Shown one piece after another: positions 28,103-29,118 of a stretch of DNA of 64,000 bases. Both the position numbers and the translations under genes were made by a program. The stretch lies in sequence record NC_022968.1. The stretch is one strand, 5' to 3'. The stretch comes from Escherichia phage 4MG. How positions within the stretch are numbered: position 1 is the stretch's first letter; each line of letters begins with the position of its first letter. Under the pieces are notes generated by a model. It did not search any database and was not told where the DNA came from. It saw nothing but the letters and a program-made list of their open reading frames with translations.

Positions 28103-28133
28103 AGAAAAAGAAAAGCCCCGCAAGAGCGGGGCG
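28103..28133 (-). terminator. rho-independent terminator at downstream end of tRNA cluster
   Basis: hairpin GCCCCGC-aaga-GCGGGGC with run of T on minus strand (A-run 28105..28114 on plus). Confidence 0.6.
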
Positions 28134-28178: not shown

Positions 28179-28257
28179 ATGCGTGGATGGGAGTCGAACC
28201 CACAATTTTCGGCTTATGAGGCCAACGTGATCTATATATCCGTTTCACTAACACGCA
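28179..28257 (-). tRNA. tRNA-Met or Ile2 (anticodon CAT), extended D-region
   Basis: hand-folded: T-loop TTCGACT, anticodon loop CTCATAA, CCA encoded; D-loop about 14 nt. Confidence 0.55.
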
Positions 28258-28266
28258 ATTGTTTGG

Positions 28267-28339
28267 TGGGACCGGGTGGACTCGAACCACCGACCATCTG
28301 CTCTTCAGGCAGGCACTCTACCAACTGAGTTACAATCCC
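28267..28339 (-). tRNA. tRNA-Phe (GAA)
   Basis: T-arm GGTGG/TTCGAGT/CCACC, anticodon loop CTGAAGA, A73, CCA encoded. Confidence 0.75.
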
Positions 28340-28349
28340 ATAAGATTGG

Positions 28350-28420
28350 TACTTCCTGGTAGAATCGAACTACCGCAACTGCCGTGTAAAGACAGGGTTC
28401 TACCATTAAACTAAGGAAGC
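28350..28420 (-). tRNA. tRNA-Val (TAC)
   Basis: T-loop TTCGATT, anticodon loop TTTACAC, CCA encoded. Confidence 0.7.
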
Positions 28421-28430
28421 ATTAAGGTGG

Positions 28431-28504
28431 TGGGCGACAGGGGACTCGAACCCCCAAAATTCGGAATCTAAATCCGACACGTATACCAATTCCATCAATC
28501 GCCC
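28431..28504 (-). tRNA. tRNA with Leu-type anticodon TAG but short (5 nt) variable arm
   Basis: 74 nt cloverleaf, anticodon stem TCGGA/TCCGA, loop TTTAGAT, A73, CCA encoded. Confidence 0.55.
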
Positions 28505-28616
28505 ATAAATGTTTGGAAGCCCATACTGTCTTCCTGATCAGCCAGAATCCTTTTCTAGCATTATCATCGGCCCTGTAGATCCTATCATTAGCCAGGGGAT
28601 CGACGCCTTAATTTGG

Positions 28617-28689
28617 TGGAGCCACTGAGAATCGAACTCAGTTCTACAAGGTGCAAGCCTGTGATTTTATCCAAATAAACTACAGCCCC
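28617..28689 (-). tRNA. tRNA-Ala (TGC)
   Basis: anticodon loop CTTGCAC; G3:U70 pair present; CCA encoded. Confidence 0.75.
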
Positions 28690-28696
28690 ATGTTGG

Positions 28697-28769
28697 TGCA
28701 AGTACAGGGATTCGAACCCCGATTCTCAGCTTCGTAAACTGATGCTCTGTCCAGTTGAACTATACCTGC
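28697..28769 (-). tRNA. tRNA-Arg (ACG)
   Basis: T-loop TTCGAAT, anticodon loop TTACGAA, CCA encoded. Confidence 0.7.
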
Positions 28770-28778
28770 TAAAATTGG

Positions 28779-28853
28779 TCGGAGCGGCAGGATTCGAACC
28801 TGCGACCCAGTGCATCCAAGGCACCCACGCTGACCAGACTGCGCTACGCTCCG
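28779..28853 (-). tRNA. tRNA-Pro (TGG)
   Basis: T-arm GCAGG/TTCGAAT/CCTGC, anticodon loop CTTGGAT, perfect acceptor pairing, CCA encoded. Confidence 0.75.
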
Positions 28854-29040
28854 AAGGTGCAGAATTTTAATTATCCCAGATACTGCAACTGGTATCGCTG
28901 GCTAGCTAATTTGATCCGCTCTGGTCACCTCGTGTGACATTGCAGACAGGCTAACCTATTCTGCAAGAGCGTATTGGGTTTGATACGTCGAACTCATTTT
29001 GAGTGCCTTCCGGCAATTTACATCAACATATCAAATTTGG

Positions 29041-29111
29041 CGGGAACTTCCTGACTCGAACAGGAGACAACCGCAGCACAAGCGGCCATTATGCCCCTTA
29101 ACTAAATTCCC
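29041..29111 (-). tRNA. tRNA with anticodon GTG (His-type) but G73 and C37, atypical
   Basis: T-arm TCCTG/actcgaa/CAGGA on plus strand, anticodon loop TTGTGCT, CCA encoded. Confidence 0.45.
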
Positions 29112-29118
29112 AATTTGG

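Follow-up and report, generated by a model that had tools for sequence, protein, structure and literature searches.

According to the review of Giege and Eriani (PMC9976931), leucine tRNAs are long-armed everywhere except in animal mitochondria, in which tRNA-Leu is of class I and has an identity resting on A73 and A14, in a lineage and with a synthetase other than those considered here. A natural bacterial type I tRNA-Leu(CAA) with a 5-nt variable loop is known from Streptomyces coelicolor, where it coexists with class II leucine tRNAs and is leucylated by a single bacterial leucyl-tRNA synthetase (LeuRS) (Fan et al. 2019, PMC6614811). The short tRNA-Leu(UAG) gene of Escherichia phage 4MG, the subject of this study, is similar in its loop length, but it keeps A73 and U48, in contrast to the S. 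coelicolor tRNA with its loop ACAGC, its C48 and an A73 that is not an identity element. The latter is the one natural bacterial type I tRNA-Leu that was tested with E. coli LeuRS, and it is not charged by this enzyme (PMC6614811), so that a short arm is not automatically accepted, although the comparison is imperfect given C48 and the different role of A73. Behra et al. (2019, PMC6582537) have likewise remarked on a short-loop tRNA-Leu(TAG) within tRNA gene clusters of mycobacteria, and long bacterial tRNA arrays together with their link to phages have been described (Santamaria-Gomez et al. 2021, PMC8421152). The mycobacterial and cyanobacterial array genes for tRNA-Leu(UAG) have the short loop and occur beside a normal chromosomal long-arm gene, whereas the 4MG copy is phage-borne; most cyanobacterial short copies are without an encoded CCA, which the 4MG gene possesses. 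In the Anabaena array 23 of 26 tRNAs are charged in vivo (PMC8421152), but the Leu members are not named in that text, and this charging is therefore not counted here as direct support.

Among phages the exact tRNA-Leu gene is already known and annotated in public genomes: Cronobacter phage GAP31 (D856_gt023) and the Klebsiella phages KB57 and KpS11, all Vequintavirinae, possess an annotated tRNA-Leu of 77 nt which is 100% identical to that of 4MG, occupies the same array position and shows no difference from it. The Leu(UAG) gene of Salmonella phage PVP-SE1, of the same subfamily, lies in the same slot of a syntenic array and is 89.6% identical to the 4MG gene. Its acceptor, D and T arms (locus L003, 3501-3577) are identical to those of 4MG, while its anticodon arm, CCGUC-CUUAGAA-GUCGG with a U30.U40 mismatch, is that of the T5-like gene (locus L004, 5997-6073), a pattern that suggests recombination of single arms between different lineages of phage tRNAs. 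Two short Leu genes of 77 nt, UAG and UAA, are present in the T5-like phages (Tequintavirus and relatives) and share with the 4MG gene the class I cloverleaf, an RUUUU variable loop, an AAUUGGYAU D loop, A73, A37 and the CCA. They differ in the sequences of the acceptor and anticodon stems, with 76.7% identity over 73 nt, and belong to phages of another family, the Demerecviridae. Leucine acceptance by T5 tRNA-Leu and data on an arm-less E. coli tRNA-Leu are taken here from their treatment in the review (PMC9976931). Outside the older T5 tRNA work, our literature search found no description of a class I Leu family in phages; an eLife paper on anticodon-loop mutations of phage tRNAs and a 2026 JBC review do not mention Leu variable arms.

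The first-pass annotation of this DNA had noted that bacterial tRNA-Leu is normally long-armed, which is right for cells: E. coli leuW has 85 nt. This gene and the phage class II genes like it agree with the 4MG gene in anticodon, A73, U8-G9 and D-arm layout AAUUGGUAN, a non-Watson-Crick 13.22 combination and the type of T loop, but they have a 13-nt variable arm, G37 and G10-C25 where 4MG has 5 nt, A37 and A10-U25, and identity outside the arm amounts to 0.67-0.72.

The tRNA-Leu(UAG) gene and its array in phage 4MG

Phage 4MG is a myovirus of the Vequintavirinae. The window analysed here is the whole stretch of 64,000 nucleotides from its sequence record (NC_022968.1); the 5 kb around the tRNA-Leu(UAG) gene share 91.6% identity with Cronobacter phage GAP31, and 83-92% with phage relatives from Enterobacter, Escherichia, Salmonella and Klebsiella. 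The gene comprises 74 nt at 28431-28504 on the minus strand. The first-pass annotation had given this interval and length without the strand, and Rfam reproduces them exactly. The gene obtains 50.8 bits with the Rfam model RF00005, whose gathering score is 29 (E = 6e-8, calculated over the whole window), and the match spans model positions 1-71 and hence a full-length cloverleaf. ARAGORN reports a tRNA-Leu(tag) of 77 nt at 28428-28504; the additional positions result from a 3' CCA which is encoded in the genome (28428-28430, minus strand). The RNA reads GGGCGAU-UG-AUGG-AAUUGGUAU-ACGU-G-UCGGA-UUUAGAU-UCCGA in its 5' half and AUUUU-GGGGG-UUCGAGU-CCCCU-GUCGCCC-A-CCA in its 3' half.

The covariance-model alignment sets the anticodon UAG at tRNA positions 34-36 (28468-28470, minus strand; 'cta' on the plus strand) within the loop UUUAGAU, in agreement with the triplet that had been read before, so that the different triplet named as a possible refutation does not appear. 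The 5-nt variable loop AUUUU (positions 44-48; 28456-28460, minus strand) and the discriminator A73 (position 28431) were likewise seen correctly in the first reading, and U48 of this loop can form the A15:U48 Levitt pair. Arm-by-arm segmentation places a Leu-type D loop, AAUUGGUAU, with A14, A15, G18G19 and A20a, at 28483-28491 on the minus strand. To call all arms clean, as the first-pass annotation did, is slightly generous: the cloverleaf itself stands, but the acceptor stem contains one wobble pair (U7.G66), the T stem another (G49.U65), and the D stem consists of three standard pairs and a G13.A22 mismatch. The latter is the D-arm layout exactly as in E. coli tRNA-Leu.

If a class II tRNA is taken to have a variable arm of more than 10 nt that folds into a stem-loop, the 4MG gene falls outside this class, with 5 nt against 13-15 nt in the E. 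coli Leu tRNAs. It corresponds instead to type I, i.e. a Leu anticodon and a variable loop of 4-5 nt in an otherwise complete cloverleaf. Position 37 constitutes a second departure from the host's CUN-reading Leu tRNAs: these have G37, the m1G37 site, whereas the 4MG gene has A37.

The minimum free energy fold of the single sequence is the cloverleaf, with a z-score of -1.5 that is uninformative for a tRNA. Support for the predicted structure is provided by the covariance model and by covariation among homologues, not by this single-sequence fold. A pattern scan for the family, in which the UAG loop, a 5-nt RUUUU variable loop and the T arm were forced, matched at least 119 IMG/VR contigs and 51 bacterial contigs. 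Among the matches listed, 159 short Leu(UAG) sequences are cloverleaf-compatible, 104 of them unique; A14, A15 and A73 are present in 159/159 and U8 in 158/159, and the CCA is encoded in 95 of the 116 viral homologues among the matches listed. Across 31 diverse homologues 99.2% of the cloverleaf cells are paired; the shuffles give 70.4% and the slid controls 36-49%. Both sides change in 16 of the 20 cloverleaf pairs, and none of 500 shuffles reaches the observed values. A separate count over the 104 unique sequences agrees with this result and finds compensatory changes in every stem, although its pairing percentages are slightly inflated by the cloverleaf-compatible filter and by a D-loop length that was partly chosen by pairing.

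These data bear on the question of whether the gene is simply a decaying, non-functional Leu gene that has suffered a deletion of the variable arm. The G13.A22 mismatch and the low single-sequence z-score could be read in this way, and the 4MG array does contain at least one apparent pseudogene (30264-30333). However, the mismatch is the normal state in tRNA-Leu, the tertiary and identity positions are all intact and the CCA is encoded. The compensatory changes among the 104 unique homologues of the matches listed likewise speak against decay, as does the conservation of the 77-mer, which is 100% identical in GAP31, KB57 and KpS11 while the flanking 5 kb are just 83-92% identical, i.e. have diverged by 8-17%. 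We therefore consider a pseudogene very unlikely. The apparent pseudogene itself (30264-30333, minus strand) is a 70-nt tRNA-like gene with a 6-nt anticodon loop and without CCA, reported by ARAGORN as 'tRNA-???'; this gene of the array has probably decayed, and its counterpart in GAP31 is flagged as a pseudogene.

The tRNA-Leu(UAG) gene belongs to a dense array of tRNAs of many isotypes at 28179-34878, with about 27 genes (25 found by ARAGORN and two by Rfam only) that all lie on the minus strand. GAP31 and PVP-SE1 have annotated arrays that are syntenic with it. A consensus scan points to a promoter-like site, TTGACA-17-TAACAT, at 31062-31090 (minus strand), 5' of the tRNA block to which the Leu gene belongs, and to a putative terminator hairpin, GCCCCGC-TCTT-GCGGGGC followed by a T run, at 28115-28132 (minus strand), just 3' of the last tRNA. 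Pattern matches to similar near-consensus sites, each with TTGACA, a 17-nt spacer and TAGTAT or TAACAT, precede tRNA blocks at 34899-34927, 34595-34623, 33580-33608 and 31062-31090 on the minus strand. The spacer between tRNA-Leu(UAG) and the upstream tRNA-Ala (28505-28613) measures 109 nt in 4MG and 35 nt in GAP31, a surplus of about 74 nt. A second arm-less Leu gene, tRNA-Leu(UAA), with the loop GGGUU, A73 and an encoded CCA, was found by ARAGORN and segmentation at 31289-31366 (minus strand). It carries G37 where E. coli tRNA-Leu(UAA) has A37, the reverse of the exchange seen in the UAG gene.

Several other members of the array have unusual architectures. A UUU (Lys) tRNA at 29459-29542 (minus strand) has a 13-nt insertion in the D loop; it obtains 50.5 bits with Rfam, was missed by ARAGORN, and is annotated in GAP31 as an 87-nt tRNA-Lys. 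The CAU tRNA at 28179-28257 (minus strand) has a 9-nt D-loop insertion, a U discriminator and a flagged non-standard pair in the acceptor stem; the annotation of the relatives lists it as tRNA-Met, and the PVP-SE1 copy is misread by ARAGORN as Ala(ggc). At 29197-29285 (minus strand) lies a 'tRNA-Asn(GUU)' of 89 nt with a genuine 17-nt variable arm and G73. When anticodon arm and variable region are hidden, its core comes closest to tRNA-Ser(GCU) (0.82) and tRNA-Tyr of E. coli rather than to tRNA-Asn, so that the gene amounts to a Ser-like class II body with an Asn anticodon, GCU and GUU being one base apart. Judged by its identity elements it could be charged by AsnRS (anticodon and G73) or by SerRS (long arm and G73). 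Long 'Asn' genes are also present in GAP31, PVP-SE1, T5-like phages and 22 IMG/VR loci; the cores of those from T5 and PVP-SE1 are not Ser-like.

Leucine identity and the meaning of CUA

The determinants used by E. coli LeuRS are A73, U8:A14, A15:U48, the placement of G18G19 and A20a, together with the pairs G18:U55, G19:C56 and U54:A58, and neither the anticodon nor the long arm is needed (Giege and Eriani, PMC9976931; PMC6614811). All of these elements are present in the sequence of the 4MG tRNA-Leu(UAG). Its D arm, UG-AUGG-AAUUGGUAU-ACGU, has the Leu layout, which in the E. coli Leu isoacceptors reads AAUUGGUAG. In a blind similarity ranking against 30 E. coli K-12 tRNAs covering all 20 isotypes, from which anticodon arm and variable region had been removed, the four Leu isoacceptors rank first among the 30 (core identity 0.75-0.82), and the best non-Leu tRNA is Trp with 0.62. 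A Vibrio-phage homologue has the same acceptor stem as E. coli leuW, and the two genes are 0.77 identical when anticodon arm and variable region are left aside. A BLAST search with the 4MG gene against 5,426 complete E. coli genomes (28 Gb) returned no match, which excludes near-identical or prophage copies only, as a 74-nt query is too short for the detection of distant similarity. Judged by these features, the gene very probably encodes a working leucine tRNA.

In yeast mitochondria CUN codons are read as threonine, and the known CUN reassignments show the combination of a Leu anticodon with a class I body. The 4MG tRNA might accordingly be supposed to be charged by a synthetase other than LeuRS and to insert another residue at CUA, or at CUN codons in general. 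The codons of the phage itself speak otherwise. In 27 ortholog pairs between the 4MG window and PVP-SE1 (mean amino-acid identity 88.6%), 38 CUA codons of the window could be aligned; 30 of these 38 differ in PVP-SE1, and all 30 are replaced by other Leu codons, namely CUG (11), CUU (9), UUA (5), CUC (4) and UUG (1), of which CUG, UUA and UUG are read by ordinary host tRNAs. A non-Leu partner was not seen for any of the 38 codons in these 27 pairs, and CUA therefore means leucine in 4MG. The body of the tRNA leads to the same result: its core is Leu-like, and under the identity rules (PMC9976931) G3:C70 excludes AlaRS, the missing long arm excludes SerRS, and A35-G36 does not satisfy what any other E. 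coli synthetase requires of the anticodon. Recoding thus appears highly improbable.

We consider it likely that the gene encodes a functional phage tRNA which is charged with leucine by the host LeuRS and decodes CUA, and whose variable arm has been reduced to 5 nt. Under this explanation the tRNA would be transcribed as part of the array of about 27 genes, receive leucine from the host leucyl-tRNA synthetase and read CUA, by wobble also CUG and perhaps CUU; reading of CUU would depend on a presumed modification of U34. The long variable arm of a tRNA-Leu would have shrunk to a 5-nt loop, a reduction that would be tolerated because the enterobacterial LeuRS reads A73 and the tertiary core instead of the anticodon or the arm. 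The tRNA would then top up the host's single-copy decoders of CUA and CUU, for the benefit of a genome in which CUU is about twice as frequent as in E. coli and CUG less frequent. The data establish the gene with its fold and Leu-type core, its conservation and the reading of CUA as leucine in this phage; expression, charging by LeuRS and the advantage in codon supply are what we infer.

Codon usage gives this last step an uneven basis. Per 1000 codons, 71 long ORFs of the window contain 20.9 CUU, 4.4 CUA and 30.3 CUG, compared to 9.4, 3.7 and 62.4 in a sample of 25 E. coli genes. The host possesses a single gene each for the reader of CUA (leuW) and for that of CUU and CUC (leuU). Since CUA is barely commoner in the phage than in E. 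coli, the codon-supply argument leans mainly on CUU.

Short and long leucine tRNA genes in phages and mobile arrays

Homologous tRNA-Leu(UAG) genes of 73-77 nt are present in 210 INPHARED phage records, which include GAP31, KB57, PVP-SE1, T5-like phages of Salmonella and Escherichia, and phages of Vibrio and Aeromonas. Phage records with the long form that resembles leuW number 303. The bacterial matches to the short form lie mostly in tRNA arrays of filamentous cyanobacteria, some of them plasmid-borne, and additionally on MAG contigs; family members were found in arrays and plasmids of Nostoc, Calothrix, Tolypothrix and Anabaena. The arrays that harbour homologues contain a median of 13-15 tRNAs per locus. 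The architecture had been singled out as unusual in the first-pass annotation, with a routine occurrence in related phages set beforehand as the observation that would speak against it. For cells this judgement stands, while for related phages it largely does not, given the 210 records; the short form is nevertheless not universal among the relatives, as FENT2, KP12 and VIK251 have a long-armed Leu(UAG) and about 10% of viral Leu(UAG) genes are short.

The latter proportion derives from a scan of viral Leu(UAG) genes that is neutral with respect to arm length, because the genes were defined by D loop and anticodon alone: it yielded 95 long and 11 short genes, the short form making up about 10%. 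Position 37 follows the arm in this sample, with A37 in 11/11 short and G37 in 81/95 long genes, and the arrays around the short genes are denser (median 11 tRNAs per locus, compared to 5 for the long genes).

SerRS and bacterial TyrRS use the long arm of their tRNAs. Among the 170 array loci of the matches listed, the Leu genes of most anticodons are frequently short, whereas Ser remains long in 134/136 viral and 37/37 bacterial cases and Tyr in 57/57 viral and 23/23 bacterial cases, likewise among the matches listed. The frequent loss of the arm in Leu and its retention in Ser and Tyr can be attributed to a bacterial LeuRS that does without the long arm. Outside the older T5 work, this contrast of Leu with Ser and Tyr was found nowhere in the literature that we searched.

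Changes in tRNA architecture within such arrays are not limited to Leu. Long predictions occur for Lys, Thr, Pro and Met too; the bacterial loci L135 and L144 contain two predicted 92-nt UAU tRNAs, labelled 'Ile(tat)', and 13 IMG/VR loci contain 'Ile' predictions of at least 82 nt. Some bacterial arrays with a short Leu(UAG) gene also possess tRNAs of 72-75 nt with a CUA anticodon, which would decode amber and which ARAGORN labels 'Pyl(cta)'; these are the arrays L139, L140 and L143 (Nostoc, Mojavia) and L163 (a Phocaeicola MAG contig).

Within the phage subfamily the two architectures alternate in one and the same slot. In FENT2, KP12 and VIK251 the array slot beside tRNA-Phe that is taken by the short gene in 4MG contains a class II Leu(UAG) gene of 85 nt. 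Outside the arm these genes are 86-87% identical to leuW, and they have the same anticodon arm, including G37; to the 4MG gene they are 71-72% identical. The Leu(UAA) slot behaves similarly, being short in 4MG, FENT2 and KP12 and long in PVP-SE1 and VIK251, where class II genes of 86-89 nt (L003, 773-858; L306, 5100-5188) are 0.57-0.60 identical to the 4MG Leu(UAA). Short and long forms are therefore interchangeable alleles within one phage subfamily, a natural swap.

This exchange also bears on a role outside translation, as a decoy, a primer or a tRNA-shaped regulatory RNA. Non-canonical roles of array tRNAs are left open in the work on cyanobacterial arrays (PMC8421152). An RNA of this kind would hardly be expected to swap with a canonical Leu(UAG) gene in a single slot, nor to conserve the anticodon loop, the identity set and the encoded CCA, and we give a non-translational role next to no credence.

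The simple reduction of the arm described above competes with one further explanation, in which the tRNA likewise functions with leucine but the arm-less A37 form was selected as a 'hardened' replacement and is not a neutral simplification. Such a form would escape a tRNA nuclease or toxin of the host, or work without the m1G37 methyltransferase TrmD. Some phage tRNAs do counter tRNA-cleaving defences, and the tight linkage of short arm and A37 (11/11 short genes with A37, 81/95 long genes with G37) as well as the denser arrays of the short forms (median 11 versus 5) would fit this idea, as would the other odd architectures in the 4MG array, i.e. the expanded D loops of the Lys(UUU) and CAU tRNAs. 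On the other hand, no defence system directed against tRNA-Leu(UAG) or against the variable arm of this tRNA is known to us, nor did our analysis find one; in close relatives, which thrive, the slot is occupied by a host-like allele of class II with G37, and shared ancestry could account for the link between A37 and the short arm. Selection for hardening is accordingly an explanation that we regard as rather unlikely. A shade less probable still is its extension to the whole family, according to which the arm-less A37 Leu tRNAs of phage and mobile arrays would form one horizontally spreading 'hardened' lineage with a non-neutral loss of the arm. If it were true, this lineage would maintain the decoding of CUN codons during infection or stress, when the Leu tRNAs of the host are cleaved, depleted or under-modified, for example through independence of TrmD and m1G37 or through resistance to a nuclease that recognises its target by the class II arm or by the G37 loop.

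We therefore return to the leucine tRNA with a tolerated loss of its arm. The arm-less tRNA-Leu(UAG) of 4MG is unusual for cells and ordinary for this class of phages, and it is explained by known properties of LeuRS. Since T5-like phages, related phages and mobile arrays commonly carry the short form, the 4MG gene is a curiosity rather than a discovery. Loss of the arm in Leu and its retention in Ser and Tyr are what is expected if LeuRS alone ignores the arm. The existence of hundreds of arm-less Leu genes in phages and mobile arrays, set against the statement that tRNA-Leu is long-armed outside animal mitochondria (PMC9976931), adds a footnote to tRNA biology. Minimal Leu tRNAs and class I and class II alleles at a single locus would be convenient material for studies of LeuRS recognition, of the dependence on m1G37 and of the annotation of tRNA isotypes in phages.
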